Origin: an uncultured Chloroflexia bacterium
Lineage (GTDB): Bacteria; Chloroflexota; Limnocylindria; Limnocylindrales; CSP1-4
DNA length: 64,000 nucleotides
Direction of reading: 5' to 3'
Assembly: GCA_963768655.1 (NCBI GenBank)
Contig: CAVYIM010000007.1
Coordinates: 64,001-128,000, forward strand
Each line of letters starts with the position of its first letter. The first letter of the stretch is position 1. Under the pieces are notes generated by a model. The model saw only the letters and a program-made list of their open reading frames with translations. It had not been told where the DNA came from and ran no database searches. Positions 1 to 37,977 of this stretch are shown here, piece by piece. A program made the translations under genes and the position numbers.

Positions 1-1056
1 GGGACCTTGATATGGGAAGAATTCTCGGCCCTTCGACTTGAGAATGGTACCGGGCAGGACGTAGCCGCCTGCGAACGAGACCGGGTCGTATGCCCATGAT
101 CCGGTCGTGAGAGCCGGCGCTGGGAGCGCGCCAAGCTGCCAGTTCCTGCCGTCGCTCGAGGTCCAGATGCTCTGCTTGAGGTAGGCTGTCCCAAGTGCGA
201 CAAAGCCGCTGGAGCCGCCAGAGATCGGGCCGATCCCGCCCGCTCCGAAGACGCTCGGCATGTCGATCGGGGTCCACGACTTCGCGTCCGAAGACGACCA
301 CATCGTCTCGGGCGTGAGTCCGGGCGAGGTCGCGCCGCACATTCTGCCGCAGTCGACCTGCCCCCGAATCAGGAGGCTGTCTGGCCCCTCTTGGAACTGG
401 ATGACCTCGAACACGCAGTCGGCTCGCTCGGCGGCGTTGAGTCCTCTGTCATAGCTCTTGAACCAGGAGTTCCAGACGCTGATGTCGATGGTCGATCCGG
501 AGCTCCAGGTCAGCCCATCCGCCGAAACCCAGGGCGTCAGGGCACGGCTCTTCGGGTTCCATAGGAACTCGACGTAGCCGCCGCTCCAGGCTTCGAGTGT
601 GGCGTTGTAGACGCCACTCGCGACGGCAATCTCGGATCGGGGCGGCACCGCTGGCGAGTGGCCACCGGGAATTGCGATCCAGTCGAGGCCGGTCCAGGTG
701 GCGGTGGGAGTGGGGCCGACGCTTGGCAGCGGACCCGTGGGCGGGGGTGGCGTGGGTGTGGCGATCGGGATCGGGCTCGGAGTGGCGGTCGGCGCCGGTG
801 TGGCGGTCGGCGTGGCGAGATCCGGCGACAATAGGGCGGCCAGGCTCGGGGTAGAGGTCTCCGTCGAACCACTCGCGGTCGCCGATGGCGTCGCCGAGGC
901 GGAGAGCGACGGTGAAGCAGATGGGGATGCCGACGCGGTTGGCGACGGACTGGCCGCCGCGGTGCACGCCGCCGCGGTGAGGGCGATCAGCACCACCGCC
1001 GCCAGCCAGAAGCAACCCCGCCTGCTGCCGTGACCCAGATCAGATGCCCACTCCAT
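1..1056 (-). CDS. Lipoprotein with Ser/Thr/Pro linker and Asp-box (BNR)-like repeats; runs off the window start
   Basis: Manual translation, not in the ORF track: MEWASDLGHGSRRGCFWLAAVVLIALTAAAC (lipobox-like), S/P/T-rich linker, repeats WVSADGLTW, WSSSDAKSW, WTSSDGRNW; SD AAGGGGA upstream of ATG 1056. Confidence 0.75.
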   Translation of the reverse strand, partial: MEWASDLGHGSRRGCFWLAAVVLIALTAAACTAAASPSPTASASPSASPSLSASATPSATASGSTETSTPSLAALLSPDLATPTATPAPTATPSPIPIATPTPPPPTGPLPSVGPTPTATWTGLDWIAIPGGHSPAVPPRSEIAVASGVYNATLEAWSGGYVEFLWNPKSRALTPWVSADGLTWSSGSTIDISVWNSWFKSYDRGLNAAERADCVFEVIQFQEGPDSLLIRGQVDCGRMCGATSPGLTPETMWSSSDAKSWTPIDMPSVFGAGGIGPISGGSSGFVALGTAYLKQSIWTSSDGRNWQLGALPAPALTTGSWAYDPVSFAGGYVLPGTILKSKGREFFPYQGP

Positions 1057-1112: not shown

Positions 1113-1940
1113 CTACCCCGTGACGGAGCAGTCGGTCGCGCCGTCATGTGCCGTCCGCTTGGACAGATCTGCCGTGGCCAGCTTCGATCGCACCCAGCCT
1201 GCCGCGATACCGAGCGCCCCTCGGCCCTCCCCGAGCTTGTCGAGCGCCGTCGACTTGGCCGGCTCGACGAGGTCGGCTACGAGCTCCGCTGTGCGCCGGG
1301 AGAGTGCCTCGGGGTCTGGAGGTTCGGCCGCTGGAACGCCGTCGAGGTCGGCCAGACGGTTCGCCGTATCCGCGATCCCCTCGGTGCTCCGGACCTGCTC
1401 GTCCCAGGCCGCTGCCACGTCGGGGAAGAGGGCGGCATGACCATCGAGGTAGCGGCCTTCGACGATCTCGCGCGCCCGCTGGGCGGCATCGAGCTCCCCG
1501 ACCTGTATGGCGAGCAGGCGGATCACGGTGGCGAACCGCTCGCGGTATGCCGGGCCGGCCCGACCCTTGGCGTCCTCCTTCGCTAGCAGAGCCAGCTGGG
1601 CAGCGAAGAGGGCATCGAGGAGTTGCCCGCGTTCCAGTAGCTCGTGCGCCGTGACGTTGATCCGCATCACCAGCTCGAACCGAAAGACCGTCTCGCGCAG
1701 GGCGGTCCGAACCGCGGCATCGACTACTTCCGGACGCTTGCCGCGCATGGCTGTCCGGGCCACGTGTGCCGCTTCCCGAGCCAGTCCGTCCAGCGGTGCC
1801 ACCGGTGGATCCGCCGCCAGGAGCGAGCCGACGTAGGACTCGATGTCACCGAAGCCATGGGCCCCTGCCAGCCAGCGCAGGACCAGCTGCGTTGGGGAGA
1901 GGGAGGCTTCGAGCCGCTCGACGCGCCGGCTCAGGCTCAT
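1113..1940 (-). CDS. Hypothetical helical protein of the element
   Basis: 275-aa ORF starting MSLSRRVERLE; ATGA overlap with the upstream gene at 1937-1940. Confidence 0.7.
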   Translation of the reverse strand: MSLSRRVERLEASLSPTQLVLRWLAGAHGFGDIESYVGSLLAADPPVAPLDGLAREAAHVARTAMRGKRPEVVDAAVRTALRETVFRFELVMRINVTAHELLERGQLLDALFAAQLALLAKEDAKGRAGPAYRERFATVIRLLAIQVGELDAAQRAREIVEGRYLDGHAALFPDVAAAWDEQVRSTEGIADTANRLADLDGVPAAEPPDPEALSRRTAELVADLVEPAKSTALDKLGEGRGALGIAAGWVRSKLATADLSKRTAHDGATDCSVTG

Positions 1941-2359
1941 CGCGGTTCCTCGGCCGGGAAGGCGGCCTCGCCGTCGGCAGCTCGCGCCTGGCCGAGGGCC
2001 GCTTCCAGAGCAGCCAGGCGGGCCTCGAGCTCACCGACTTCGAGGAGCCGGCTTGCTGCGGTGGCGGCTGCGATCAGGACCCGGCAGCGGGCGATCGAGT
2101 TCTCCAGCCCCAGAGCATCCAGAGTCGCGATCTCGAGGACCCGCTCGATCGAGTCGCTGGTCCGCAGACCCTCGAAGTCATAGGCGAGCGAGAGGGTCTT
2201 CTCCCGCCGCCGCCGCAGCCCGCCGAGCTTGCGGGCCTCGGCTGCCTCGACGCTGTGGTCGGGCGAGTGCATGAAGCAGTACTCCTCATCGCGCAGCGGC
2301 GCAGCCGGACAGCGCTTGCCGTCGGCAGTGGCGGCCCGGCAGACCCTCTTGGTTGTCAT
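1937..2359 (-). CDS. HGGxSTG-like / terminase-small-subunit-like protein
   Basis: MTTKRVCRAATADGKRC...YCFMH...ARKLGG Cys/His motif; C-terminal ELEARLAALE coiled coil; follows a ParB-MTase as in phage packaging modules. Confidence 0.55.
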   Translation of the reverse strand: MTTKRVCRAATADGKRCPAAPLRDEEYCFMHSPDHSVEAAEARKLGGLRRRREKTLSLAYDFEGLRTSDSIERVLEIATLDALGLENSIARCRVLIAAATAASRLLEVGELEARLAALEAALGQARAADGEAAFPAEEPR

Positions 2360-2392
2360 TGCTTGACTTTGCTTGTCATTGCTTGACTCGCA
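2353..2392. repeat. Four tandem 10-bp units forming two perfect 16-bp direct repeats
   Basis: TTGTCATTGC TTGACTTTGC TTGTCATTGC TTGACTCGCA; ttgtcattgcttgact at 2353-2368 and 2373-2388. Confidence 0.85.
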
Positions 2393-2481
2393 GCGGCAGT
2401 TGCTTACCCACGATCGCGTCATATGGTCGGGTTGGGGACGCGCCAACGGCCGCCACGTTCGCGGGCAGGTTGCGGGTCGGC

Positions 2482-3723
2482 TCATTCATCGATGCGCTCC
2501 GCCGCTTGGCCGCTGAAGCGCTCCCAGCGCCCCAGCACCACGTCGGCGTAGGTCGGGTCCAGCTCGATGCCGGCGCAGGTCCGGCCGGTCCGCTCGCAGG
2601 CGATCAGCGTCGAGCCTGATCCGAGGAAGGGATCCAGGACGAGGTCTCCAGCTGAGGAGCTGTTGGCGATTGCCCGCTCCATCAAGGCCAGGGGTTTCAT
2701 GGTCGGGTGGAGCGGTGCATCGGCGGGTCTGGCTATCTCCCAGACGTCGTCCTGATCCCGGTCCCCGCACCAGTGGCGACTCGCTCCTTCCCGCCAGCCA
2801 TACCAGATCGGCTCATAGCTTCGTTGGTAGTCGGCCCGGCCGATGACGAACCTATCCTTGTGCCAGATGAGGGTGTCGGACCAGTGACCTCCCTCCTCGG
2901 CGAGGATCCGCGATACGAGCGGCATCTCCTTGCTCGACATGCAGCAGTAGATCGCGCCGTCGACGCCGGCCAGCAACGTTCTCGCCCAGGCCCGCACGAA
3001 GGCTTCCCAGGCGGATGGGTCCAGGGAGTCGTTGGCGATGCGGCGTCTTCGAGACCCCCGCTGGTGGCCGCCGTGGTCGCCGAGCGACACGTTGTATGGA
3101 GGATCGGTGAAGGCCATGCCGGCACGCTTCCCGCGCAGCACGCTATCCACGTCCTCGGGCTTGGTCGCGTCCCCGACCAGGAGGCGATGCTCACCTGGAG
3201 CCCAGAGCTCTCCGGGTTTGGTCCGAGGTGCACGGGTCGCTTCTTCGAGCGCGGACTCGAGGTCGAAGTTCTCCGGGCGTTCGGCCTTCTCGCGGGTCAC
3301 CATGCTCCGCAGCAGGTCGGCGATCTCGTCCTCTCCGAACCCCGAGAGCGAGAGGTCGATCTCCGGGCTGGCTCGGAGGTCGGCCAGTAGCCGAGCCAGG
3401 AGTTGCTCGTCCCAGGAGCCGGAGATCCTGTTCAGGGCCAGGTTGAGCAGGTGGGCCTGCTCGGCCGAGAGGTCCAGGTACGTCACCGGGACCGTCGCGA
3501 GTCCAAGCCGCCGCGCGGCGAGCAGACGCTGGTGGCCGCCGATGACGGTCTTGTCCTCCCGGCGCGCGAGCACCGGCTGGACGAAACCGAACTGGCGGAG
3601 GCTGCGCTCCAGAGATTCCAGCTCCTCATCGGAGATCCTTCGGGGATTGGCCGGGTCCGGATGCAGGAGATCGATTGCGACCTCTTCGAGGGCGAGAGAG
3701 GGCAGGGGAGTGGGGACGCTCAT
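2482..3723 (-). CDS. ParB N-terminal domain fused to a beta-class (probably N6-adenine) DNA methyltransferase
   Basis: ParB motifs NPRRI, SLRQFGF, GGHQR; MTase motif IV DPPY before HPTMKP and motif I DPFLGSG. Confidence 0.92.
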   Translation of the reverse strand: MSVPTPLPSLALEEVAIDLLHPDPANPRRISDEELESLERSLRQFGFVQPVLARREDKTVIGGHQRLLAARRLGLATVPVTYLDLSAEQAHLLNLALNRISGSWDEQLLARLLADLRASPEIDLSLSGFGEDEIADLLRSMVTREKAERPENFDLESALEEATRAPRTKPGELWAPGEHRLLVGDATKPEDVDSVLRGKRAGMAFTDPPYNVSLGDHGGHQRGSRRRRIANDSLDPSAWEAFVRAWARTLLAGVDGAIYCCMSSKEMPLVSRILAEEGGHWSDTLIWHKDRFVIGRADYQRSYEPIWYGWREGASRHWCGDRDQDDVWEIARPADAPLHPTMKPLALMERAIANSSSAGDLVLDPFLGSGSTLIACERTGRTCAGIELDPTYADVVLGRWERFSGQAAERIDE

Positions 3724-5072
3724 CTTGGTTCTCCTTGGCGGGATCGAGTGGGACTGCCAGACACGGTTCCTCCAAGGAGGGAGTCGTCGTCCCAGAGGCT
3801 GGCCGCTCCTGGCTGCGAGGATGGCGTGGAACGCGAAGAGACCGGTTCTTCCCTAGAGGAGGAGATCGGTGTCTTCGGTGTCTTGGTCGGTGTCTTCGGA
3901 CTCTTCGGAGTCTTCGATGGAACCGGTGAAGGCACCGAAGGCACCGAAGGCTCCGATCTTTGGGCTGACGATCGGAGCGACCAGACCCACCCGCCCCCGA
4001 AGCCCTCCTTGGCGGTGCGGACGCCGGCCCGCTCCCGGGCGCGCCCGAGGTTGTCCTGGGAACTGATGTCGAAGCCCTGTGCCTCTAGGGCACGGTATGC
4101 GTCGGCTGCGGCCATCGAGCCGCCGTGGGAGCCCAGAAGCTCCCGCATCGCGTCGGCCAGCTCGGCCGTCTTGGAGCGCCCGACAGCCTCCTCGCGGGTC
4201 CGCCCGATGAGGTCCTCGGCCGTGCGCTCCGAGGTTCCTTCCCAGGCGATGTGGGACGGCTCGTAGGGACCATCGGCCACGATCCGGTATGCCAGAGACG
4301 GCGGTCGTCGGGCGACGTTGAGCTTGATCGGGGCCAGGATCAGAAGATCGGGGTCGCTGCTGTCGCGCCCCACGGCGAGGACGCTGCGGGCGAGTCCGGT
4401 GAAGCCGATCGAGCCACCGCCGCGATAGAGGGCGTCCTCGCCGGCGCGCTTGTTGAGATGACGGATGGCGACGACCGCGGCGTCGAGGCGGCCGGCCATC
4501 TGTGCCAGCGGCTCCAGGGCCCGGCGGACCCGGTGGTCGTCGTTGGTCTTGACGCCGTCCCCGAGGTAGGCGACGAGCGGATCGATGACGATGAGGCGAG
4601 CCCGCAGGTTGCTCGCAGTGGCTTCGAGCCGATCGATCTGGTCGGGCAGGACGAGCTCGCGCACCAGATGGAAGCGAGACGGGTCTCCGCCGGCGCGCAG
4701 CAGCCGAGGCAGGATGGTGTCCTCGGCGTCGTCCTCGGCCGTGATGTAGATGGTCGTGAAGGCGTCGCCCAGAGGTTCACCGCTAGGGGACGAGCCGCCG
4801 ACCGAGCCACGCGACGCAATGTCGAGCAGGATCGTCGACTTACCGAGCCCAGGGTCGCCATCGAGGATCGTGACCTTGCGCAGAGGGACGTAGCCGCGCC
4901 ACAGCCAGTCGATGGGCCGGGTCCGGACCTCTGAGAGATCGATCGTCGCGAGCGGTTCGGCGAGGGGCACGAGGGGCTTGATCGTGGGAACGCCGTCCTG
5001 GGCGCTCTCGCTGACACGCGCAAACACCTTGCGGGCTGCAGCACTGTCTCCGAGGCGCTCGAAGGTGCTCAT
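3720..5072 (-). CDS. RepA-like AAA (AAA_25-type) ATPase/helicase
   Basis: Walker A GDPGLGKS, Walker B LIVIDP, IRHLNK, GGSIG; likely start MSTFERL at 5072 overlapping the LSR stop; SD GGGAGG. Confidence 0.88.
   Translation of the reverse strand: MSTFERLGDSAAARKVFARVSESAQDGVPTIKPLVPLAEPLATIDLSEVRTRPIDWLWRGYVPLRKVTILDGDPGLGKSTILLDIASRGSVGGSSPSGEPLGDAFTTIYITAEDDAEDTILPRLLRAGGDPSRFHLVRELVLPDQIDRLEATASNLRARLIVIDPLVAYLGDGVKTNDDHRVRRALEPLAQMAGRLDAAVVAIRHLNKRAGEDALYRGGGSIGFTGLARSVLAVGRDSSDPDLLILAPIKLNVARRPPSLAYRIVADGPYEPSHIAWEGTSERTAEDLIGRTREEAVGRSKTAELADAMRELLGSHGGSMAAADAYRALEAQGFDISSQDNLGRARERAGVRTAKEGFGGGWVWSLRSSAQRSEPSVPSVPSPVPSKTPKSPKTPTKTPKTPISSSREEPVSSRSTPSSQPGAASLWDDDSLLGGTVSGSPTRSRQGEPR
3868..3954. 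repeat. Convergent 9-bp iteron-like repeats, candidate replication origin
   Basis: Five GGTGTCTTC-like copies (3868-3915) facing three GAAGGCWCC copies (3928-3954) in the opposite orientation. Confidence 0.7.
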
Positions 5073-6718
5073 CCCACCACTACCCTCCCGCGACCGACCG
5101 GCAGCTCGATCACGCGGCGCAGGACGGTGTAGTTGTGACTTGCAGGGATGCCCGTGCAAGTGGGAACTACACACGGGAAGCGATATGTCACGAGCGCCTT
5201 GGCGGTCTTGCGGCCGTCCTCACCGATGGTGGTGTGGACGACGATGCCGACCAGGAGCCGGACGATCTCCTGGCGCTGAGCGTCGGTCAGGCCTGCGTCC
5301 AGGCGGGCGCGGACCTCGGATAGGAGGTCATGGACCTCTTGGGGGACGACCTCGGCACGTGGCGCCTGCGGCGCTGTCACGCGGGCTTCTAGGGCGGTCC
5401 GCTCGGTGGCGATGCGGTCGAGTTCGGCATCAAGCTCGTCATCAGGCAGCCGGCCGCGGATGTTGAGGGCGATGGCCGCCTTGCGCTGGCTGTCGAGAGC
5501 ATCGAGCGCCCGAGCGAGCGTGATCGAGGTGGCCTCAGCAATAGCTGCCTGAGCGTCTCGCTCGGCGGGGCCATCGAGTCCATCGAGGGCATCACCAGGG
5601 TTTCGCAGCCAGGCCTCGATGTCGGCCCAGACGGCAGGTTCGATCGAGTCGGCCCGAACCGAGCAGCCCGGGCAGCGACCGGCGAGGACGCCGCGTTCGA
5701 CGAGCTGCCCGCCGCAGCGATACCAGCCGGCGTCGCGGCTCCACGAGCCGACGTAGGTGAGGCCGCAGATGCCGCAGCGCACGACACCCTTGAGCAGGTA
5801 GACGCGGTTGGTGTTCTTGGTGCAGCGGCGGTTGGCAGCCAGGGCATCCTGAGCGGCTTGCCAGAGAGTAGGGGAGACCAAGCCCTCGATCGGCGCCACG
5901 ATCACCTGCCGGTCCTTCTTCTTGGTGCGCCGGCCGTAGGAGAGCTGGCCCCGATAGATCGGGTTGGTGACCATGTTGCGGATCAGGCCGGCTCGCCAGA
6001 GGGCCTGAGTCCTCCTGCCCCGGACACCCCGACCATCGCGGGCATAGGCGGTCGGAACCCCGAGGGCGTTCAGTTCGCCCGCGACGCGCCGGCAGCTCCA
6101 GCCCGCCAGGGCGATCCACTCGTACATCCGGCGCACCACCCCTGCCGCCGATAGGTCAGCCCAGACGTTCGCCTCGTCGGGCACGAGGCTCGCCGACTCC
6201 TTGCGGCCCTCGGGGCGATATCCGTAGGCGACGATGCCGCCGCAGTACCTTCCCTCTCTCGCGGCCCGGTTCATGCCGTCGGCACTGCGTCGGGCGAACT
6301 CACGGCGGTAGTGGTCGGCTACGACGGCTTGGACGTCGTAGCCGAGGAGATCCGGCTGCCCTTCGACCACCGACACCAGGGCGATGCCCAGAGCATCCAG
6401 GCGGCGGCGGACGACCAGGAGATCCACCGCGTCGCGGCCGAGGCGGTCGACCTTGTAGACCCACAGCTCCTCGAAGCGCCCGGCGACGGCATCTTCGAGG
6501 AGGCGTCGACCATCAGGCCGTTCGGCGATCGGGATCGTGCCCGATACGCCGTCGTCGACGTAGCGGCCCACGAGCTCGACGCCGGGCTGGCGCTCCAGGT
6601 GACGGGCGATCTCGTCGGTCTGGGTGCGGATCGTCTCGCGCTCGCGCTGGTCCTCGCTGCTGACCCGCTCGTATGTCGCCACCCGCCGAACCGCCGGGAC
6701 CGCTGCAGCCATGCTCAT
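5069..6718 (-). CDS. Large serine recombinase (resolvase, recombinase and Zn-ribbon domains)
   Basis: YERVSS catalytic motif, DDGVSG, DRLGR, NPIYRG, CGICG...YRC...C, coiled coil; SD GGGAGG before ATG 6718. Confidence 0.95.
   Translation of the reverse strand: MSMAAAVPAVRRVATYERVSSEDQRERETIRTQTDEIARHLERQPGVELVGRYVDDGVSGTIPIAERPDGRRLLEDAVAGRFEELWVYKVDRLGRDAVDLLVVRRRLDALGIALVSVVEGQPDLLGYDVQAVVADHYRREFARRSADGMNRAAREGRYCGGIVAYGYRPEGRKESASLVPDEANVWADLSAAGVVRRMYEWIALAGWSCRRVAGELNALGVPTAYARDGRGVRGRRTQALWRAGLIRNMVTNPIYRGQLSYGRRTKKKDRQVIVAPIEGLVSPTLWQAAQDALAANRRCTKNTNRVYLLKGVVRCGICGLTYVGSWSRDAGWYRCGGQLVERGVLAGRCPGCSVRADSIEPAVWADIEAWLRNPGDALDGLDGPAERDAQAAIAEATSITLARALDALDSQRKAAIALNIRGRLPDDELDAELDRIATERTALEARVTAPQAPRAEVVPQEVHDLLSEVRARLDAGLTDAQRQEIVRLLVGIVVHTTIGEDGRKTAKALVTYRFPCVVPTCTGIPASHNYTVLRRVIELPVGRGRVVVG
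5127..5172. other. Candidate intact attP site inside the LSR 3' end
   Basis: GTGTAGTT-gtg-ACTTGCA-gggaTGcccg-TGCAAGT-ggg-AACTACAC, a 46-bp dyad centred on TG 5149-5150. Confidence 0.7.
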
Positions 6719-6906
6719 CGGACACCTCCCAAACCGCGCTCGGGAAGCTGCCGGGGGAGGCCAAGCACCACCCGCAGGGCAGCCGCCATCGCCTCGCGGT
6801 CCGGCGTCCATGAACGCTCTATCTCGGGCGGGTTAGCAAGGCGGCGCGGCCAGGGCGTGGGGTTCGCCGCGGCGGACGCCGCGGCGAAGCAGGCGGTGGC
6901 ATTCAT
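6715..6906 (-). CDS. Small 63-aa protein coupled to the LSR (possible directionality factor)
   Basis: MNATACF...GGVR; its stop overlaps the LSR ATG; function inferred from position only. Confidence 0.45.
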   Translation of the reverse strand: MNATACFAAASAAANPTPWPRRLANPPEIERSWTPDREAMAAALRVVLGLPRQLPERGLGGVR

Positions 6907-7022
6907 CGCCAACCGCTCGGCCTTCGTTTGCGCCCACTTGCCCGTCACGCCGCTTGGACCTCCGCTCGGCGAGTGCCAGCCCGCCAGCGCTCGCAGGCAC
7001 AGAGAATGACGGCCTGGCCTTG

Positions 7023-7775
7023 CTATAGCGGTGGTGCTAATTCGCGCGGGACCCTCACTGGCAGGCCCACCTGAGTCCATGTTCGGCGATTGGTGAGACA
7101 GACCGTGCGCTGGTAGTCCCTGAGCCGCTGGCGGTCGACGGCGTTGGCGCGACAGCCTGCCTTCAGGACCGCGTGCATGTCTGGGGCGGCCAGGGCGCCG
7201 TCGGATTCGCATTCCCAGCTCAGCCAGGTCCTCACGGCACGAAGATGGCTGAGGCCAGCGTCGCGCAGTCCAAGGACGACCACAGCGCGGGCCAGGATCT
7301 CCCGCGACATCGTCTTGCGCTTGTCGTCCTGGCGGCCCGTCAGGAAGGCTCTGAGGAAGACCGCCACATTTGGATCGTCGGCGATCTTTCCTAGACGGCG
7401 CCGGGCAGTGTCGCGGTCCCGGATGATCTCTCCGCTGCGAAGTCGCAGGTAGGGCCCGACGACATCGAACGAGATGCCCGAACGGCCCAGGGGCTTCTCA
7501 GACGCGTCATCGTCACGGACCCACCACTGGCCGTCGGCCTCCAGGTACTTGTGCCAAGGCGCCGCAGCGAGTACGTCCGCGGAGGGCTTTGAACCAACCG
7601 GGTCGTACGCTGGAGCAGCCATCTTGACCCAGCGAGCAAGCACGTCGGCCGGAGTCAGGGCCTCCATGTCGGCGAGAACGTCGCTGTACCAGGCGTGCCA
7701 CTCGTCGATCGGGTAGATGAGACGCGCGCGGCTCGGCATGCTCCACAGGCTAGCAGCGGCCGCTGGCCCGGCCAT
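7023..7775 (-). CDS. Hypothetical protein, possible regulator of the element
   Basis: 250-aa ORF with protein-like composition, co-oriented with the element; start uncertain. Confidence 0.6.
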   Translation of the reverse strand: MAGPAAAASLWSMPSRARLIYPIDEWHAWYSDVLADMEALTPADVLARWVKMAAPAYDPVGSKPSADVLAAAPWHKYLEADGQWWVRDDDASEKPLGRSGISFDVVGPYLRLRSGEIIRDRDTARRRLGKIADDPNVAVFLRAFLTGRQDDKRKTMSREILARAVVVLGLRDAGLSHLRAVRTWLSWECESDGALAAPDMHAVLKAGCRANAVDRQRLRDYQRTVCLTNRRTWTQVGLPVRVPRELAPPL

Positions 7776-8274
7776 CGGATGTCGTGGGTCGGGACGCCTG
7801 TGGCATCACCCTCGCTGGCTCGCTCACCGTCGTCCGGCATCGGCCCGGTCACAGAGCGGAGCCCGACCCGGTCGGACCATAGCGAACGCCGCTTATCTGC
7901 GGCTTATCTGGATACGTCCAATTCGTGTTGCGACCAGTCCTCCCGGATTCTAGACTGTGCCCCACGACCGCTCGCCCTTGGTGAGCCGGTCCCGCAGGCT
8001 CCCGTCGTCCTCCCCCTCGGATGCCGGGAGCCTCTTCTCGTCCCATGCCCTGTTCTGTCTGGCGCCTGGCGCTGGTCTCACGAGCGGTTGAGCCCGAGGG
8101 CCGGCTCGTGCGACACTAGGGCCAGCAAGAGAGGCTGGGTTTGCGGCGCCCACGTGGACGTAATGGGGGCCTTCCCTGATCCGAGGCTCAGTGTCGGCAA
8201 CGCCGAGGGCGAGGAGCTTCGCCGGCGGCTGCGCGGCAGCAACAGCAGTCGCTGAGCCGACCGGCGGGCGCGCT

Positions 8275-9210
8275 CTAGAGTCCGATCGCCGCCGCGACCT
8301 GAGGCCAGGCGTGGTCTTCGGTGCCTTCGAGGCGGCGCAGGTAGGTCGTCGTCGTGGCCAAGTTCGAATGATCGAGGTACGCCGATACCGCCTCGATCGA
8401 CTCGCCGGCGTCCCGACGGAGCTTCGCCGCGGTGTGGCGCAGGACGTGGATTCCTGTCGGCGCCAGACCGGCCGCCTGTAGGTACTTCCTGAACCGACTG
8501 TAGAAGGTCGAGCCAGTCACGCCTCGAACCCCGGCCCCGGCTTGCCAGAGCGACGCGCCCTTGTCCATCGATGCCAGTGACAGTCCGGCGTCGGTCAAGG
8601 TGGTGCACAGCGCCTCGTAGGCAGGGTGTGGGAGTTCGCGCCGACCTCTCTTGCCGCCCTTGCCTCGATAGCTGTAGAACACCGTCTCCGCCTCGACGCT
8701 GATGTCCCCAGCGGTCAGGCCGATTACCTCTGTGCGCCGTCGGCCGGTAAGGATGAAGGTCAGCAGGAGGGCCAGGTCACGCCGGCCTGCCACGGTGTCC
8801 GGGACAACCGCGAGGAGCCGCCGCACTTCCTCGGCTCCGTACCCGCGGGCAACCGACTGGACGGCTCGCGGCCGCTCGACCGCGTCGCAGGGGTTGGACA
8901 CGACCAGGCCCATCCGGATCAGGAAGCGGTAGAAGGACGACAGGCAGGCGATCCTGGCTCCCACCGTCGTGGCTGATGGTGTCCGCCCGGACTTGCCGAT
9001 GCCGTGGACGAAGGCCAGGACGTCGGCCGGCTTGACTCGGTCGGGCGTCTTGCCGAGGTCGGCGAAGAAGGGCCAGAGCATCCGGCTGTAGGACTCCACC
9101 GTCCGTCGGGAGCCTGAGCGGTTGCCCTTCTCTACCAGGAAGGCGTAGAGGGCCTGGTCCCAGGCGGAGGGGTCTCCGCTGGTTAGGGCGGGGAGGGGTT
9201 GAGCGGTCAT
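8275..9210 (-). CDS. Tyrosine recombinase / integrase (XerC/D-like)
   Basis: TGRRRTE, GKGGK, HVLRH, LDH, TTTTY catalytic set; N-terminal core-binding domain; no obvious IntI insertion. Confidence 0.95.
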   Translation of the reverse strand: MTAQPLPALTSGDPSAWDQALYAFLVEKGNRSGSRRTVESYSRMLWPFFADLGKTPDRVKPADVLAFVHGIGKSGRTPSATTVGARIACLSSFYRFLIRMGLVVSNPCDAVERPRAVQSVARGYGAEEVRRLLAVVPDTVAGRRDLALLLTFILTGRRRTEVIGLTAGDISVEAETVFYSYRGKGGKRGRRELPHPAYEALCTTLTDAGLSLASMDKGASLWQAGAGVRGVTGSTFYSRFRKYLQAAGLAPTGIHVLRHTAAKLRRDAGESIEAVSAYLDHSNLATTTTYLRRLEGTEDHAWPQVAAAIGL

Positions 9211-9231
9211 CGTGGGCGTCCTCGGGTGCGA

Positions 9232-9252
9232 GATGGATCACCCACATCCATC
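9232..9252. promoter_or_regulatory. 7-7-7 inverted repeat upstream of the tyrosine recombinase (core site or operator)
   Basis: GATGGAT-cacccac-ATCCATC. Confidence 0.45.
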
Positions 9253-9386
9253 ACTCAGCCGGCCGCGGAAAGCAACACCATCGCGGCATCGTCGCCGGCG
9301 GACTGCTGGCCCTTGCCCATGGTGGACGAGACAGCCGCCCGTCCTGCCAGAGCGCAGCAGCCATTCGGGTTCTTCGCCGGTCTGGC

Positions 9387-9506
9387 TCAGTGCGCCACCG
9401 TGGCGAGTTGCAACGCCACGACGGGCAGAACGATGAACACGAAGATCAGGACCGCTACGATCACCAGCACCCTGTGTCTGCTGGCGCAGCCCGTCACAGA
9501 TTGCAC
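9387..9506 (-). CDS. Small single-TM protein (39 aa)
   Basis: Manual translation (M)QSVTGCASRHRVLVIVAVLIFVFIVLPVVALQLATVAH; GGGGGTGA upstream of GTG. Confidence 0.4.
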   Translation of the reverse strand: MQSVTGCASRHRVLVIVAVLIFVFIVLPVVALQLATVAH

Positions 9507-9779
9507 GATCTCACCCCCAGAGTTCATACGAGCCGGAGCCAGTCCAGCATGGCCCGCCTCGCCTCGAACGACAAGCGCCCTGGGCCGCCTACTTGCGCTC
9601 GAAGACCCCGACAGGACAGCTCACCCCCAACCCGTGCGCAATACATGAAGCTTTCGGGTTGTGCTCCGGCGATTGCCTGGTCCGTCGCGGGTGTGCCAGT
9701 GCGTCACGAGTCCCCTTGACGGGGCCAGGCTAGGGCGCCATCTTCTCGGTGTTGGCTCTGCGAACGTTCGGGGGGAGAC

Positions 9780-10133
9780 ATGGGCATGTCGAGGAAGTTG
9801 CTGGTCGCGTTGCTCGCGGTGCTGGTGGTAGCCGCGGCATTCGGCGCGGGCTACTGGATCCGAGGCAACAATGGCTTGCACCCGGCCATCTACACCGCCG
9901 ACCGCTGCGACACCGGAGAGATTGGCGGATCATGCATCGTCGGTGGCACGACCTACGGCTTCGAGTCTCCACCAAGCTGGACCGACAGCGGGGGCGTCTT
10001 CCATGACAGCGGTTGGCCGACGTGCTTGCCGCAGATGAGCTCGGTCAAGGGCTTGCGGATCGCGGCTGACTGGCTGTACGTGGGACCCGGCGCTGAGGCA
10101 CACGTGTTCTGGGTGGACTGCCAGAACCGCTAG
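9780..10133 (+). CDS. Small secreted or membrane-anchored Cys-containing protein
   Basis: N-terminal hydrophobic segment, four Cys, SD GGGGGAG. Confidence 0.7.
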   Translation: MGMSRKLLVALLAVLVVAAAFGAGYWIRGNNGLHPAIYTADRCDTGEIGGSCIVGGTTYGFESPPSWTDSGGVFHDSGWPTCLPQMSSVKGLRIAADWLYVGPGAEAHVFWVDCQNR

Positions 10134-10160
10134 CTCCACACGGCCACGGGTGGCGAGTGC

Positions 10161-11003
10161 CTACTTACTGGCCGCTTGCGCAGGTTCCCACCGCCAGGCA
10201 GAGCCACGCTTCGTGACATGCCCAAGGCTCGGGAAGGGCGGGAAGTGGAACGCGAGTACCAGGGAGCGGTTGCTCGCTGCCCGGTCGAAGAGCCGTCGCT
10301 TGGTCGCGACTGCCGCCTCGGGATCGTAGTCCCAGACCGGATACCAGCCGGGATGCTCCAGGTGGATCGGATGCATCGCCGCATCGGAGAGGTACAGGAA
10401 CTCTTCGCTCCCGGAGCGAATGGCGACCGCCATATGGCCCGCGGTATGCCCAGCGGCGTCGATCGCGAGGATGCCGGGGACGATCTCGGTCTCGCCGCCG
10501 AGCAGCTCCACCTGGTCCCCTAGCGGCAGCAGGTTCGCCCGGGCCCACTCCCCGAAGAACGGCGCGAGGCCCGCCAGGATGGCCTCGTCGGTCCAGTAGT
10601 CCCACTCGTTGCGGAACATGACATAGCGCGCGTTCGGGAAGGCCAGGTAGCCATCCGCATCGACGTTGCCACCGATATGGTCTGGGTGGCCGTGAGTGAG
10701 GACCACGACGTCGATCTCACTGGGCTCGATCCCGGCACGTCGCAAGTTGCCGTTCAGTTTGCCAACGTTGGGCGTCATGTCGCCCGCTCCCGTGTCGATC
10801 AGGACAAGGTTCGAGTCCGTCCGGATGACGAGGCCGCTGTACGGGGATGGGATCCTGTCCGGCTGATGGCCGTGGGCTCTCAGCGCGTCCGCGACCTCAT
10901 CCGGTGGCGCGTTGACCACGTAGTCCGTCGCGTCGTAGTCCGTGTCACCGTCGCTGACGGCGATGCAGTCCATGGTCCCGATCTTGAACGTGTAGGCACC
11001 CAT
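10161..11003 (-). CDS. Metallo-beta-lactamase-fold hydrolase
   Basis: LIDTG, THGHPDHIGG, GHTAGH, AFHFPP. Confidence 0.93.
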   Translation of the reverse strand: MGAYTFKIGTMDCIAVSDGDTDYDATDYVVNAPPDEVADALRAHGHQPDRIPSPYSGLVIRTDSNLVLIDTGAGDMTPNVGKLNGNLRRAGIEPSEIDVVVLTHGHPDHIGGNVDADGYLAFPNARYVMFRNEWDYWTDEAILAGLAPFFGEWARANLLPLGDQVELLGGETEIVPGILAIDAAGHTAGHMAVAIRSGSEEFLYLSDAAMHPIHLEHPGWYPVWDYDPEAAVATKRRLFDRAASNRSLVLAFHFPPFPSLGHVTKRGSAWRWEPAQAASK

Positions 11004-11446
11004 GGCCGCTCCCTGACGTGCTGTCTCAGGTCACCGAGCGACGAACCTCTCGAGGCTGCGTCCGGCTTCGTCTGCACTAGTATTCGCTTTCAGCGGGCGA
11101 AATGCCGCTCTTTCCACCCGGTCGCTGACGCCGCGTAGCTCGGCGGTGGCTCGTGATCCTAGCCAGAGGGTAGCGTCGGCTTATCGCCGCGCAACAGGCT
11201 GGCTGTCGCCGGCTTGATGCGTGAGGCGAAGCTCGACCAGCGACACTCGACCGTCATCCTGACTGACCTCGCCGAACTGGCGAAGGTCCTCGTGTCGGCG
11301 GCGTGACCAAAGCAGTCACGTGACGTGACCGGCACCATCGCCCGCTCGTGTCGGGGCGATGGTCGGGGCGAGAGGACTTGAGGCCGAGATAACAAGCGAA
11401 CCCGCGGCGCAGAGGGAATGTGGCCGGCCCGGCCAGCGCGCGGCTC

Positions 11447-12094
11447 CTACTGAGAAACGACGAGCCAGAGCCGCAACGGCCCAAGAAAGACCCCCAGCAC
11501 CACGGCTCCGCAGAAGACGAACACGCCCAAGGCGATCAGGCCAGCCTTGAGACCCACGAGCTGCTGTGACTTCTTCGCTCTCGCCAGGGCCCGGCCGCCA
11601 ATGTTGGCCGCGGCTAGGGCGGCCACGAAGTAGACAGCCAGACCGACGCCGATAGCCGGGGCACTGCGCTCGCTGATGGCCGGGCCGATTCCTCGCGCCA
11701 CCCCGATCAGCCCCATCCACGGCGCCCACGACACGAACAGCTCTGCGAAGGCGAGGCTCCCCGCCCCTTTCACCGTGGCCGCCGCTCGGAACTCCTCGAT
11801 CGGGCGCCCACCTCTGGAGGCGATCCCATCGTGGAAGACGTAGCACAGGATGGCGTCGGTGATTCCCCGGATGTACTGAGCTCCGAAAATGAGGGACTTC
11901 CCGTCGAAAGCGAGCGGGGCTGACTCAGTCCATCGCGTGGTGGCCGTAGGCGCTGCGAATCTTGCGACCTCCCTCCCCTCCGAAGTGACACTGATGGTAA
12001 ATGGCCCTCCCGGCGCGGCCTCGAATGGCCGACGGGTGCCATCTTCGAGCGGGACCGACCATCGGTTGTGCATCAGGCGCATGTTGTTCTTCAC
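11447..12094 (-). CDS. Hypothetical membrane protein
   Basis: Three C-terminal hydrophobic segments. Confidence 0.6.
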   Translation of the reverse strand: MKNNMRLMHNRWSVPLEDGTRRPFEAAPGGPFTISVTSEGREVARFAAPTATTRWTESAPLAFDGKSLIFGAQYIRGITDAILCYVFHDGIASRGGRPIEEFRAAATVKGAGSLAFAELFVSWAPWMGLIGVARGIGPAISERSAPAIGVGLAVYFVAALAAANIGGRALARAKKSQQLVGLKAGLIALGVFVFCGAVVLGVFLGPLRLWLVVSQ

Positions 12095-15308: not shown

Positions 15309-16797
15309 GAGGTTGTCCCGAGTTCCGTGGAATTTGAGTTGAGGGGAGGGTCCTCCAGCCCGGAGCGTGAGCTGTCACGCTACGGGAGACCCGGAAAGTC
15401 GAACTGGAGGAACCCATGCCATCGTCCCACGTCCGGCCCCGCCCTGAGAAGCGATGCCGCCGACCTCGCCGTCTCGTTCACCAGCTTCCTGCTGAGCTGA
15501 CAGGGCGGCTCGAGGGCCATCTCGCCACGTTCGCGAGCCATCTGCGCGAGGGCCTGCTGGCCGCTTCGACCGCGGTCGGCCTCGAGGTCCTCGACGAGCT
15601 GATGGCGGCTGAGGTTGACGGCCTGGCCGGCCCACGCGGCCGCCACCGAGCGGATCGAGTTGCCTATCGCCATGGCAGTGAAGCCGGAACCGTGACCCTG
15701 GGCGGCCGCCGACTCCGCGTCGAGCGGCCACGTGTGCGAAGTGCCGATGGAGCAGCCGAGCTGCCGCTCGCGACCTACGAGGCCGCGAGAGCCAGCGATC
15801 TGCTCGCCGACGGGATCGTCGCCCGGATGCTCGCGGGGCTCTCGACTCGCGACTATCCGGTTGGCCTCGAGCCTGTTGGCGAGGCCATCGAGGAGGCCGC
15901 CGTCTCGACCAGCCACGCCGCCGTCAGCCGCCGCTTCCTCGCCGCCACGGCAGAGCGCCTGGCTGAGCTGCTCGGGCGCAGACTCGACGACCGCCGCTAC
16001 CTCGTGCTCATGCTCGATGGCTTTCGCCTGGGCGATCACCTGCTCGTAGGCGCGCTCGGGATCGACGCCGCCGGCCACAAGGTGCCCCTCGGCGTGGTCG
16101 AGGGCACGACCGAGAACAGCGCGGTGGTCAACGCGCTCCTGGCGGACTTGCGCGATCGCGGTCTGGACACAAGCGCAGGCGTCCTCTTCGTCGTCGACGG
16201 CGGCTCCGCCATCGGTTCGGCCATCCCCACCTTCTTGGGCAAAGGCGTGGCGATCCATCGCTGCCATCGCCACAAAGAGCGCAACGTTCTAGAGCACCTG
16301 CCCGAGATCGAACGACCGCTCGCCCAGCGCCGGCTTCGGGCCGCCTGGGCCGAGCGAGATCCGGACAGGGCGAAGGCGGCCCTCCACTCCCTGGCCCGCA
16401 GTCTGGCCCACAGCCGTCCGGGAGCCGCCGCGTCGCTGCGCGAGGGGCTCGACGACACGCTCACCCTGACGCGTCTGGGCATCAGCGGCTCGCTCTGGAG
16501 GACGCTCGAGTCGACCAACCCGATGGAATCGATGATCGAGATCGTCAAGACGCACGCCCGCCGGGTGAAGAACTGGGAGTCGGGCGAGATGGCGCTGCGC
16601 TGGGCCGCCGCTGGGATGCTCGCCGCAGAGGCTCAGTTCCGCCGAGTCTGTGGCTATCGGGAGCTGCCCATTCTTGCCGCTGCGCTGAAGCGCGAGCTCC
16701 ACATCGAAAGCGAGGCGAGCGCTACCAACCAACCGATATGATCAGCAACCTGGAGACCCGACCCTCACTGAAATTCCACGACGAGCGGGACATCCTC
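15309..16797 (+). mobile_element. IS256-family insertion sequence, copy 1 (1489 bp)
   Basis: Imperfect TIRs GAGGTTGTCCCG...GTGGAATTT / AAATTCCAC...CGGGACATCCTC; 8-bp TSD TCTTGCTG at 15301-15308 and 16798-16805. Confidence 0.95.
15416..16741 (+). CDS. IS256-family (mutator-type) DDE transposase
   Basis: GLSTR, LMLDG, VVDG, RCHRHKERN, STNPMES. Confidence 0.95.
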   Translation: MPSSHVRPRPEKRCRRPRRLVHQLPAELTGRLEGHLATFASHLREGLLAASTAVGLEVLDELMAAEVDGLAGPRGRHRADRVAYRHGSEAGTVTLGGRRLRVERPRVRSADGAAELPLATYEAARASDLLADGIVARMLAGLSTRDYPVGLEPVGEAIEEAAVSTSHAAVSRRFLAATAERLAELLGRRLDDRRYLVLMLDGFRLGDHLLVGALGIDAAGHKVPLGVVEGTTENSAVVNALLADLRDRGLDTSAGVLFVVDGGSAIGSAIPTFLGKGVAIHRCHRHKERNVLEHLPEIERPLAQRRLRAAWAERDPDRAKAALHSLARSLAHSRPGAAASLREGLDDTLTLTRLGISGSLWRTLESTNPMESMIEIVKTHARRVKNWESGEMALRWAAAGMLAAEAQFRRVCGYRELPILAAALKRELHIESEASATNQPI

Positions 16798-17444
16798 TCT
16801 TGCTGCTCGGCACAGGGTTTGCAGTCTGGGCGCGTCGACAGCTGGGGCAGTACTGGAGCGCCCGTGTTGCGCTTGCAGAAGGCCACCAGCTGATCCAGAC
16901 CGGCCCGTACCACCTTGTGCGCCACCCCATCTATCTCGGTGGCCTGGTGGGAGTCATGGGCACCGCGATCGTCATTGGAGAAATGAGAGGCCTGCTGTCG
17001 GTCGTCTTTGTGCTGGCTGTCGTCGTCCTCAAGATCAGAACAGAGGAAGCCTTCCTGGGTGAGCGGTTCGGTTCAGCCTACCGGCAGTATCGGGATGAAG
17101 TGAAGGCCCTCATTCCCTTTGTCTATTGAATGCTTGGTCGCCCAACAACCGTAGGAACACCGACACGAAAAGGCATCGGAGATTCCGCTGCGCCGGCAGA
17201 GCTAGCCAGGAATGCTGGGAGCCCCAGTGGACTTCAGTCAAGCACTCGCAGCGGCGTCTGGGATCTGGTCACCGGCCGCCCGCTTCGCTGCTATGCGCGG
17301 ATCATGTCGTTGGGACTTCCAGTGCGCCGTGCCGCGCTGTTCGTCCGACGATCCCGGCCTGGCCGCTCGGGCGGCTACGTCGGGGGCCCGCTCAGACCGG
17401 ACCCGTGGCGACCCACCATCTGCCGGGTCATACTGGCTAGCCGT

Positions 17445-17930
17445 ATGGATCAACTTGGCCAGTCTGCCCTCGTCGCCGCTGTCGTTGGCGCTGTCGTTGG
17501 CGGCTTGTCGGGCTTCCTTGTTGCGAGACTTCAGCGGACGTGGGACCTAGATGCTCGGCGGGCGGAGGATCGAAAGGCGCGCTTGAGAGCGGCAGCCGAT
17601 GTGATCTTTAGGTTCCTAGATAACGTCAACGAATGCCGGCGCACGACCGGCTCGCCTTCGGGTCCCTGGCCTCTCTCGCGGCCTATCGACCGTTTGTCCT
17701 CAGCTGACCGGTGGGCGGTGGCATCGGTTTTGTCCATCTTCCCAGACAGGCCGACATGGCCAGGGTTCTTCTATCCAGCGAATTACCTCCTTCAAGGAGA
17801 GGTCCCGTCAGCCACTGTCTCATGCGCTGAATTGGACGACATCGCGGCGTTCGCTAAGCGCAGGTTGCTGCTCCTGACGGTCGAGTTGGAACGTCTGGGC
17901 GACCCTAGTCTCCGCAACCTCGAAAGGTAG
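17445..17930 (+). CDS. Hypothetical protein with N-terminal TM
   Basis: MDQLGQSALVAAVVGAVVGGLSG..., followed by a charged helix. Confidence 0.6.
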   Translation: MDQLGQSALVAAVVGAVVGGLSGFLVARLQRTWDLDARRAEDRKARLRAAADVIFRFLDNVNECRRTTGSPSGPWPLSRPIDRLSSADRWAVASVLSIFPDRPTWPGFFYPANYLLQGEVPSATVSCAELDDIAAFAKRRLLLLTVELERLGDPSLRNLER

Positions 17931-33894: not shown

Positions 33895-33999
33895 GACGAC
33901 CTCCCCGGCACATGCTATCGCCCGAGAAGCGCCCTCGATGCAGCCATCGTGTTGCCGCCGTTCGACGCCGGCGCGTCAGTGGTTCTTGGCTCCGCGCGA

Positions 34000-35527: not shown

Positions 35528-35565
35528 GTCACGCCGAGCGTTGTGCCGATCGCTCCGAGCCGGGC

Positions 35566-37255: not shown

Positions 37256-37268
37256 TATTGGAGGATCG

Positions 37269-37952: not shown

Positions 37953-37977
37953 CGCTGGATCCCTCAAAGGAGCATCC

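Follow-up and report, generated by a model that had tools for sequence, protein, structure and literature searches.

The locus raised the question of why a palindrome resembling the attachment site of a large serine recombinase (LSR) lies inside the reading frame of that recombinase and stands uncut in a bacterial chromosome. The window is the whole stretch of 64,000 nucleotides analyzed here; positions upstream of it are numbered on its contig, C7. The features on which the argument draws are as follows, in window coordinates.

1-1056, minus strand: conserved module ORF of no family, running off the left end of the window; conserved in relatives
1113-1940, minus strand: 275-aa conserved module ORF of no family; conserved in relatives
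1937-2485, minus strand: 182-aa ORF with a weak DUF5763 match, kept beside the methyltransferase (MTase) gene in relatives
2482-3723, minus strand: ParB_N and N6_N4 DNA methyltransferase, from domain and PHROG matches
3720-5072, minus strand: AAA_25 (RepA/DnaB-like) ATPase of 450 aa, from Pfam and PHROG matches; its ATG overlaps the LSR stop
5069-6811, minus strand: large serine recombinase LSR#2, from Pfam and PHROG matches; the longest ORF has 580 aa, and the database form has 549 aa with a start at 6718
5069-5149, minus strand: LSR tail, IPASHNYTVLRRVIELPVGRGRVVVG plus stop, the 26 codons beyond the crossover, on the rep-side arm
5127-5172, no strand: attP-type site, with rep-side arm 5127-5148, central TG 5149-5150 and LSR-side arm 5151-5172, from half-site scans and homology breaks at the center
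5149-5157, no strand: 9-bp core TGCCCGTGC, common to attP, attL, attR and the comM attB (Cys-Pro-Cys codons, plus strand)
5149-5179, no strand: 31-bp stretch identical to C7:35531-35561, an attL-type junction in comM that lies 33,618 bp upstream, outside the window
7023-7775, minus strand: 250-aa ORF upstream of the LSR, of no family in domain and PHROG scans
8275-9210, minus strand: tyrosine recombinase, a companion of the LSR in either island and in relatives
33918-35799, no strand: 1.9-kb PALP enzyme gene segment with 98.6% identity to first-island positions C7:61145-63023; possible site of homologous recombination
48115-48412, no strand: right limit of the inserted block, where host synteny with comM-intact relatives restarts

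The dyad has inverted arms at 5127-5147 and 5152-5172, each of 21 nt and complementary at 17/21 positions, around the 4-nt spacer ATGC. Its perfect blocks, GTGTAGTT/AACTACAC and ACTTGCA/TGCAAGT, are both centered on 5149.5, which gives T5149-G5150 as the central dinucleotide, and it falls within the final 27 codons of the LSR frame. Our recount of the arms confirmed the 46-bp dyad that the sequence-only reading had described in this position. It was the sole inverted repeat in the window with at least 17/21 complementary positions and a spacer of at most 6 nt, against a chance expectation of 0.32 per window (mean of 100 dinucleotide shuffles). The half-site pattern GTGTAGTTNNNACYTBCA (at most one mismatch) occurred twice in the window, where 0.01 were expected. 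The full 3.37-Mb assembly has exactly three copies, of which the one outside the window is at the comM junction; this count fits an attL and an attP with the attR missing. A length of 46 bp, imperfect inverted arms and a location inside the 3' end of a recombinase gene agree with an attP of about 40-50 bp near its recombinase. By this form and by the homology breakpoints at its center, described below, 5127-5172 is an attP-type attachment site of an LSR clade found in Chloroflexota, as had been proposed. Where in the 9-bp core the 2-bp cut falls is predicted from the center and symmetry of the dyad alone.

LSR#2 showed the domain order PF00239 Resolvase (3e-22), PF07508 Recombinase (4.8e-18) and PF13408 Zn_ribbon_recom (1.3e-10), and it matched PHROG 95, an integrase, at 1.3e-83. 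R18, V19, S21, D23 and Q24 were invariant across 26 sequences; the motif in the window is YERVSSEDQ, and its conserved serine is presumably the catalytic nucleophile. From the layout of the dyad we infer that a dimer of the LSR would occupy both half-sites (outer block GTGTAGTT, inner block ACTTGCA), with strand exchange at the central TG. The ORF ends ...FPCVVPTCTG/IPASHNYTVLRRVIELPVGRGRVVVG and the stop, with the slash at the crossover. Because the site lies within the gene's own 3' end, integration would split the LSR gene after codon 554. The LSR body would remain at the comM-5' end of the island and read on into comM antisense, and the conserved tail of 26-35 aa, with its coupled replication-type gene, would go to the comM-3' end. 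Among 90 database homologues sorted by pattern, 27 carried a tail of the NYT..RRVI type and 39 a comM-antisense tail. The tail had a pN/pS of 0.48, a value drawn from only 15 codons in 9 related sequences, and the AlphaFold2 model predicted a beta strand at 530-539 with a pLDDT of about 75.

The target of the site was revealed by a paralogous LSR (LSR#1) on the same contig, 33.6 kb upstream. The 31 identical bases shared by the two loci begin exactly at TG. To the right of the start of this repeat, the two loci match at 124/150 positions ungapped and are 73% identical over 1.7 kb; to the left of TG they match at 40/120, and the upstream copy there is comM. The interrupted comM product ends ...LVAAMNPCPC/KWELHTGICR and a stop, with ChlI and Mg_chelatase domains up to C7:35545 and Mg_chelatase_C missing. 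In the relative G012, comM is intact (529 aa) and has ...AACCCG TG CCCGTGC GGCCATGCC... at the place of the junction, so that its target codons read AAC CCG TGC CCG TGC GGC. The sequence-only reading had named comM (yifB) as the target and had equated the core with the Cys-Pro-Cys codons of the NPCPCG motif; both points are borne out by the comM 5' part joined at TG to the paralogous LSR arm and by the intact gene of G012. Whether the host gene is intact had been suggested as a check, and it is already occupied 33.6 kb upstream. Searches of the assembly for its 3' part gave no match to PF13335 and nothing significant by tblastn or blastn with the C-terminal part of G012 comM plus 300 nt beyond.

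The same comM split was seen in relatives. We examined the 3' context of 14 LSR loci. The comM 5' part abuts the LSR 3' end at the core in seven of them, and a further two show comM antisense over 17-18 nt; three have the attP form and a conserved tail, one is of neither type and one is cut by a contig end. The 3' flanks of LSR homologues, proposed earlier as a test, thus break at TG with comM beyond in several genomes. On the other side, a junction of the rep-side arm with comM 3' (attR-type) was present in 5/5 genomes tested; its core was exactly TGCCCGTGCGG in G139, G006:C19, G052:C119 and G081:C4, and TGTCGCTGCGGC in G105. The metagenome contigs X3 record 5 and X4 record 9, at about 92% identity to the rep side, follow the window as far as 5157 and from there continue into comM 3', where 29/30 letters, compared by eye, equal those of G012. 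Two 100%-identical metagenome contigs (X1, 151 nt each) leave 5149 uncovered. Overall, attL was found in the genome itself and at 7 further loci, and attR in the 5 genomes and the metagenome contigs. As expected of a serine integrase, attB differs from attP, the two share the short 9-bp core, and the breakpoints fall at this core. Excision would call for a directionality factor, for which no candidate was found. In G139, which is singly integrated, both junctions lie on one contig 34.6 kb apart, with the LSR and the rep and MTase genes at opposite ends, which is the separation that had been anticipated. The anticipated change of LSR tail was also seen: integrated homologues read TCTG/TDSWPP... 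(the paralogue on C7) and TRTG/RGSWPP... (G006:C8). Judged from these junctions, elements of this LSR clade integrate into comM at the codons of the NPCPCG motif.

Why the site is uncut follows from the wider layout. The host sequence is syntenic with four comM-intact relatives up to C7:35539 and again from window 48115-48412 onward, which leaves an inserted block of about 76.6 kb in comM. The order runs from the comM 5' part through LSR#1, a tyrosine recombinase, cargo, the conserved module ORFs, the DUF5763-like ORF, the ParB-MTase gene, AAA_25 and the tail to the attP-type junction, and then through LSR#2, a tyrosine recombinase and cargo. LSR#1 and LSR#2 are 73% identical in DNA, and the tyrosine recombinases 78%. 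On this gene order, the site stands intact in the chromosome as the internal junction of two different islands stacked head-to-tail in comM. The sequence-only reading was right that the site is uncut; what it took for an unrecombined site is a junction of stacked islands whose host gene is occupied upstream. It follows that the rep-side and LSR-side arms may stem from different elements. C7 yielded no further AAA_25, MTase or DUF5763 module; since the second island has no MTase/replication end of its own, two complete elements are unsupported here. Neither comM 3' nor dprA occurs anywhere in the assembly, not even stranded on another contig; together with the outer right junction they are, on this comparison, lost by deletion. 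An 11-kb part of the inserted block, window 37,177-48,115, is without explanation.

The same order was found in an independent genome, on contig G227:C68 (63,981 bp), where attP and attL lie 34.4 kb apart. Vertical inheritance of an ancient, fixed array was rejected as the sole explanation, as attP and attL positions do not cluster on the LSR tree: the attP state needs 5 changes for 6 attP rows, against a mean of 5.6 in shuffles, of which 182/500 were as low, and LSR#1 (attL) of G000 groups with the attP-state LSR of G227 (SH-aLRT 94). This was a quick tree of 31/32 rows, from which L087 (215 aa) was dropped. A reading of the attP-type copies as free plasmids was also rejected as unneeded, given that in the genomes examined every attP-type LSR (6/6 genomes) comes with another, diverged LSR; the pair is contiguous in two of the six, and a free circle may yet exist in the other four. 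For the site, its core, its target, the tandem layout and its recurrence, together with the proposed integration scheme as a whole, we estimate a probability of about 0.85.

The competing readings of the site itself fared poorly. A misassembly, in which a free circular element with a true attP was misjoined to an integrated relative, could be imagined in a nine-contig assembly of 88.6% completeness whose two LSR regions have a 31-bp identical stretch in common. It would require two wrong joins between LSRs only 73% identical in DNA, and it sits badly with the loss of comM 3' and dprA from the entire assembly and with the same order on one contig of G227; we regard it as very improbable. The dyad folds as RNA at -28.4 kcal/mol (z = -5.5) and might instead be a hairpin between LSR and rep acting in attenuation, processing or stability, or a chance palindrome. 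However, the dyad lacks a T-run and coincides with no terminator-like site, and the attP sites of relatives keep the half-site motifs but have non-complementary inner arms. In many genomes homology breaks exactly at the dyad center, and these breakpoints contradict chance and a hairpin in place of an attachment site, a reading that we would call extremely improbable. A hairpin may have a role alongside that of attachment site.

How the stacked islands came together is a separate matter. To our knowledge, the serine integrases of phiC31, Bxb1 and A118 pair attP with neither attL nor attR; canonical serine integrases being limited to attP x attB, a tandem array needs another route. It is quite possible, if short of even odds, that the array grew by site-specific accretion, the attP of the second element having recombined with attL or attR of the resident island. 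The site would then be a hybrid with its rep-side arm from island 1 and its LSR-side arm from island 2, and the tail of LSR#2 and the AAA_25 gene would be foreign to LSR#2. The attL-attP unit of 33.6 kb is close to the size of a single element (34.6 kb in G139, 34.4 kb in G227), the LSR-side arms are identical over 31 bp so that either enzyme could use either site, and LSR lineages exchange first and second position between genomes. Yet this route needs the very pairing that is not known from those three integrases, and no intermediate was seen. A cointegrate formed by homologous recombination through the shared PALP segment requires no forbidden pairing: a circular second element would have recombined into the resident island, or the two would have fused ahead of integration, and the second element's native attP would be left intact, with LSR#2, tail and AAA_25 belonging together. 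Direct PALP copies (C7:61145-63023 and window 33918-35799) flank the attP 36.8 kb apart, an element-like distance, and they are far more alike than the LSRs (73% nt) or the tyrosine recombinases (78% nt). The segment may, however, just as well be a cargo gene of recent exchange; past the second copy the expected module is missing, and G227 has the same layout. We consider this route conceivable, with the odds against it.

The sequence-only reading had also proposed that formation of attP acts as an on-switch for the genes behind it. As it had noted, the LSR stop overlaps the rep start, the ATGA lying at 5069-5072 and the next ORF carrying an AAA_25 domain; G139 and G105 show such an overlap as well (ATGA or GTGA). 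Beyond the tail, the window and G227 have AAA_25, G139 and G105 have Prim-Pol, and G006 and G081 have a 224-aa ORF without recognizable replication function. From the crossover to the AAA_25 start there are 77 nt in the window, all of them LSR tail codons. A consensus scan of 3500-9600, insensitive in a genome of 68% G+C, gave no promoter-like site, and the one terminator-like site there is at 3708-3721 (plus strand). An on-switch thus fits the architecture, in which the tail is conserved, a Prim-Pol/AAA_25 gene is coupled to it and space for a separate promoter is lacking. That joining the LSR and the replication genes in one unit, by excision or in an array, would turn the latter on is close to an even call, slightly on the unfavorable side. 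The 182-aa ORF, included in that proposal as TerS-like, had only a sub-threshold DUF5763 match and no PHROG, and the label was dropped. Virion structural and packaging genes (capsid, tail, portal, terminase) were not found among 55 window and island ORFs searched by Pfam and 10 by PHROGs, which falls short of proof as many of the ORFs have no family. The island cargo consists of metabolic and envelope genes.

A broader reading, in which attP within the ORF is a two-state switch throughout the clade, is doubtful when its parts are taken jointly. Under it, only the circular or tandem-junction form would encode the full LSR, whose beta-strand tail completes the C-terminal sheet, and only this form would place the coupled Prim-Pol/AAA_25 operon behind the LSR promoter. 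Integration would give a comM-antisense peptide, alter LSR activity or direction and silence replication, and tandem stacking would lock one island permanently on in the chromosome. Such a lock, if true, might explain the recurrent arrays and the loss of comM 3' and dprA.

The natural breakpoints provide an attP/attB/attL/attR set for a serine-integrase clade of uncultured Chloroflexota, and att sets of this kind are raw material for integrase tools. An attachment site in the integrase's own frame implies two alternative C-termini according to the state of the element, with a link between replication genes and integrase that exists only where the site is joined. Tandem arrays that recur with their internal attP intact are informative on the accretion of islands at comM, and they caution analysis pipelines that an intact attP is no proof of an unintegrated element. 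The disabling of both comM and dprA in this strain connects islands of this kind with loss of natural-transformation genes.

In the open-access literature searched in full text, we found no description of an attP inside a serine-integrase gene, nor, in the portion of that text covered, of replication genes whose coupling to the integrase depends on the joined site. [quoted passage not shown] 2022 (PMC10083194). In those elements, as here, the LSR is inserted in the coding sequence of this host gene family; in the portion of the paper available there is no mention of an attP in the LSR ORF, a conserved tail, replication-gene coupling or tandem arrays, and 'C-terminal' and 'tandem' have no occurrence in its main text. 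The serine recombinase of phage WO in Wolbachia (sr1WO) integrates into a magnesium chelatase gene whose pieces flank the prophage (PMC9203015), and the split of the host gene around the element is like that seen here. As far as the account of it extends, sr1WO belongs to tailed prophages of Alphaproteobacteria, whereas here the ORFs scanned held no phage structural genes and the hosts are Chloroflexota. LSR targeting of the comM/yifB gene family is therefore already published, on the available text of the two papers (PMC10083194, PMC9203015). The insertion described here likewise lies inside a comM/Mg-chelatase-like coding sequence.

When Tn916-type elements excise, genes at one end come to lie behind a promoter from the opposite end. 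The likeness lies in circularization-dependent joining, which is proposed here; Tn916 differs in its recombinase, a tyrosine recombinase, and in the function of the genes, which serve conjugation. In mycobacteriophage BPs and its relatives, immunity depends on integration, with attP in the repressor gene and a tyrosine integrase (PMC4557955, PMC3694055). As described in the parts of these papers at hand, the likeness is an attP in a coding gene, a C-terminus altered by integration and expression set by the state of the element, the last being a proposal here. At our site, the gene that is split is the serine recombinase itself rather than a repressor gene with a tyrosine integrase, and the downstream genes are of replication type. 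The resemblance concerns a possible mode of working, not membership. In the composite SCC/SCCmec islands at rlmH, elements with Ccr serine recombinases stack head-to-tail, with attachment-type sequences at the internal junctions. Our islands resemble them in that elements of one family are stacked at one site; they differ in host gene and recombinase clade, and in that the internal junction is a complete two-armed attP dyad inside the recombinase ORF.

A repeat search of the window revealed, in the gene of a large serine recombinase (LSR), two inverted arms of 21 nt each (5127-5147 and 5152-5172) that were 81% complementary and separated by a 4-nt spacer. The plus strand of 5127-5172 reads GTGTAGTT GTG ACTTGCA GGGA TG CCCG TGCAAGT GGG AACTACAC; the shared midpoint of the two perfect blocks, 5149.5, makes T5149-G5150 the central dinucleotide. 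One inverted repeat of this quality was observed against 0.32 expected per 64 kb, and the half-site pattern had exactly three copies in the 3.37-Mb assembly. The dyad lies inside the minus-strand ORF 5069..6811 (LSR#2; Resolvase, Recombinase and Zn_ribbon_recom domains), whose TGA and the ATG of the next gene, for a 450-aa AAA_25 protein, overlap (ATGA); a ParB_N plus N6_N4 methyltransferase and three more ORFs come next on the same strand. The ORF and domain reading and the repeat search thus confirmed what the sequence-only reading had described: a dyad in the LSR 3' end, centred on TG, with the stop overlapping the rep start.

A short-word BLAST search of 5101-5200 against the same genome (G000) returned one strong second match, in which 31 bases were identical, the first of them being the T of the central TG (5149-5179 of the window and 35531-35561 of contig C7, on which the window occupies 64001-128000). 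To the right of the upstream repeat lies a paralogous LSR (LSR#1; 69% aa identity, 73% nt identity over 1.7 kb, 124 of 150 positions matching ungapped). To the left, similarity to the window falls to 40 of 120 positions, and the sequence is comM (yifB) on the plus strand, with ChlI and Mg_chelatase domains; its truncated product ends in ...FQLVAAMNPCPC, then KWELHTGICR and a stop. C7:35531 is therefore an attL-type junction of the comM 5' part with the LSR-side arm, and at the window site this LSR-side arm has another left arm as its partner. In G012, the closest relative with an uninterrupted comM (529 aa), the junction place reads AAC CCG TGC CCG TGC GGC. As had been predicted, the shared core TGCCCGTGC (5149-5157) corresponds to the Cys-Pro-Cys codons.

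Natural breakpoints in many genomes supported both the proposed attP identity and the comM target. Every one of the 31 genomes searched, G000 and 30 relatives, has comM, and its frame was open for at least 514 codons in at least 11 of the 18 genomes of the genus; in three genomes (G006, G005 and G011) it matched onward into the junction peptide. LSR homologues (E <= 1e-40) occurred in 11 of the 201 genomes of the family. At half of the 14 LSR loci (L002, L023, L024, L025, L026, L027 and L030), the comM 5' part and the 3' end of the LSR meet at the core, and two (L028 and L029) have 17-18 nt of comM antisense, after which other sequence follows or the contig stops. The attP type is represented by three loci (L033, L034 and L001, which is the one in the window), L031 is in neither state, and L032 is cut by a contig end.

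The reciprocal junction, in which the rep-side arm adjoins the comM 3' part, was found in all five genomes tested. It reads ...GTGTAGTTCA(G/A)ACCTTCACGGA joined to TGCCCGTGCGG... in G139, G006:C19 and G052:C119; G081:C4 has this core behind a different arm, and in G105 arm and core have both diverged (GTGTAGTCCGGACTCGCACCCG joined to TGTCGCTGCGGC). Both junctions lie on one contig of G139, 34.6 kb apart. Metagenome contigs about 92% identical to the rep side of the window match it to 5157 and continue into comM 3', where 29 of 30 letters, compared by eye, equal the G012 sequence. At these attR loci (L036-L040: G139, G006:C19, G081:C4, G105 and G052:C119), the comM 3' fragment has an open frame of 167-243 codons continuing upstream into the rep-side arm (e.g. 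...HGCPCG...), so the island end could supply a new N-terminus to the comM C-terminal fragment.

A scan of representative genomes added 43 loci, in records with the titles Candidatus Limnocylindrales, Dehalococcoidia and other Chloroflexota; nine of them duplicate records that had entered the counts above. By pattern, 23 were attL-type, four attP-type, two ended at the core, one lacked a C-terminal match and 13 were 'other'; by eye, L070 of these 13 was attP-type and five were comM antisense with stops. Among 90 database homologues of the LSR C-terminus, the pattern assigned 27 to an NYT..RRVI tail and 39 to a comM-antisense tail; the remaining 24 were read by eye as four attP variants, 19 comM-like and one unclear. 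Some attP-type tails begin TGSW, TGSH or TGSY before NYT (P0007, P0013, P0023, P0072 and other proteins; L038), resembling the comM-antisense tail, so their rep-side arm mimics attB over some 10 further bases. Core length thus varies among the att sites of this LSR clade.

The uncut site, which had been noted as 'unrecombined', is explained by tandem islands in comM. Synteny with G012 extends as far as C7:35539 and returns at C7:112115 (window 48115); three further relatives agree with this break, with matches back by window 48412, which gives an inserted block of about 76.6 kb. The first unit, from attL to the window site, spans 33,618 bp; it starts with LSR#1 and a tyrosine recombinase and ends with conserved module ORFs, a DUF5763-like ORF, the ParB-methyltransferase, AAA_25 and the tail. 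Beyond the window site follow LSR#2, a 250-aa ORF, another tyrosine recombinase gene with 78% nt identity to that of the first unit, and further cargo. The tyrosine recombinase genes found with the LSRs are:

8275-9210, minus strand, tyrosine recombinase
C7:39213-40184, minus strand, tyrosine recombinase

Both islands, the genomes G006 and G227 and the loci L048 and L049 all combine the LSR with such a recombinase, which in each case lies upstream of it and on its strand; dimer resolution and a second integration system are candidate roles.

No second methyltransferase or AAA_25 module was found on C7 and no fourth half-site in the genome, so the right end of the second island appears to have been lost with a deletion. 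Neither the comM 3' part nor the host gene after it was found anywhere in the whole assembly (88.6% complete). In relatives, G012 among them, the gene after comM is dprA, and no PF02481 match was present in that same 88.6%-complete assembly; with comM truncated, two natural-transformation genes are thus disabled at one locus (C7:35540 / window ~48115).

The same order was found in an independent genome on one 63,981-bp contig (G227:C68): Tyr-recombinase B, LSR-B, AAA_25, ParB-methyltransferase, DUF5763-like ORF, two conserved module ORFs, cargo, Tyr-recombinase A, LSR-A, attL and comM 5'. Its LSR genes are:

G227:C68 14479-16197, LSR-B, in the attP state
G227:C68 48943-50619, LSR-A

AAA_25 and the ParB-methyltransferase were 77% and 84% identical (aa) to those of the window, and attP and attL lie 34.4 kb apart. 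A second, diverged LSR was also present in all six genomes with an attP-type LSR. Since attP and attL positions are interspersed on a quick LSR tree, such arrays were apparently assembled more than once.

Two paths to the array are possible. Accretion by attP x attL or attP x attR recombination fits the unit sizes, but the canonical pairing rule of serine integrases excludes both combinations. Homologous recombination through a 1.9-kb, 98.6%-identical PALP segment, two direct copies of which flank attP 36.8 kb apart, would leave a native attP.

The 26-35 LSR residues past the crossover are conserved (I(P/R)..(N/D)YT..RRVIELPVGR). Because the outer half-site, read on the other strand, supplies the NYT codons, this conservation is partly a DNA-site constraint; pN/pS was 0.51 over the twelve codons after NYT and 0.48 over all 15, a weak measure from nine related sequences. 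An AlphaFold2 model (26-sequence alignment, mean pLDDT 76.4, pTM 0.42) gave two strands (490-498, 504-515), a linker of low confidence across the crossover codons (518-528) and a further strand formed by the tail (530-539; pLDDT ~75). The tail stop overlaps the next start as ATGA in the window and GTGA in G139 and G105. The gene that follows encodes AAA_25 in two cases (window, G227) and Prim-Pol in two others (G139, G105); in G006 and G081 it is a 224-aa ORF without assigned function; the AAA_25 protein groups with ATPase parts of primase/helicases (PHROGs). In the window only 77 nt, all LSR tail codons, separate the crossover from the AAA_25 start, which leaves a singly integrated element little room for its own promoter of the coupled genes. 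Judged from this gene arrangement, attP formation would plausibly act as a regulatory on-switch for them, at odds we place slightly short of even.

Additional features of the islands and the genome were as follows:

15416-16741, plus strand, Mutator-family (IS256-like) transposase, 441 aa
18165-19490, minus strand, inverted copy of the same transposase
48193-49833, Big_5 (bacterial Ig-like) gene
50121-51755, tandem Big_5 paralogue

A 266-aa ORF without family (17130-17930) lies between the transposase copies in a composite-transposon-like arrangement, and a third, partial copy lies in the first island (C7:58444-59348; 99.8% over 905 nt). About 11 kb (37177-48115) separate the last island-module homology from the return of host synteny; this segment, which the relatives examined lack at this place, contains four ORFs without family, a PAS/HisKA/HATPase/receiver hybrid kinase, an EamA transporter and a LytR_cpsA_psr protein. 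Three relatives each have a single region that corresponds to both Big_5 copies, which suggests that the gene was duplicated locally in this genome. Elsewhere, G000 has further relatives of the module. A ParB-methyltransferase copy (87% aa) adjoins a DUF5763-like ORF (C8 ~9660-11620), and its match falls into two pieces that overlap (query 10-190 and 188-412), possibly through a frame shift; an AAA_25 paralogue (39% aa) lies beside weak LSR and methyltransferase matches (C4 ~536600-542000).

Published studies already describe LSR targeting of comM/yifB (PMC10083194) and the integration of phage WO sr1WO into the Wolbachia magnesium chelatase gene (PMC9203015). We found no description, in the main texts of the open-access literature, of a serine integrase whose ORF contains the attP and has a conserved tail. 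In its possible way of working, the nearest analogies include integration-dependent immunity and the circularisation-dependent expression of Tn916. For the stacking of islands, the nearest analogy is the SCC composite islands.
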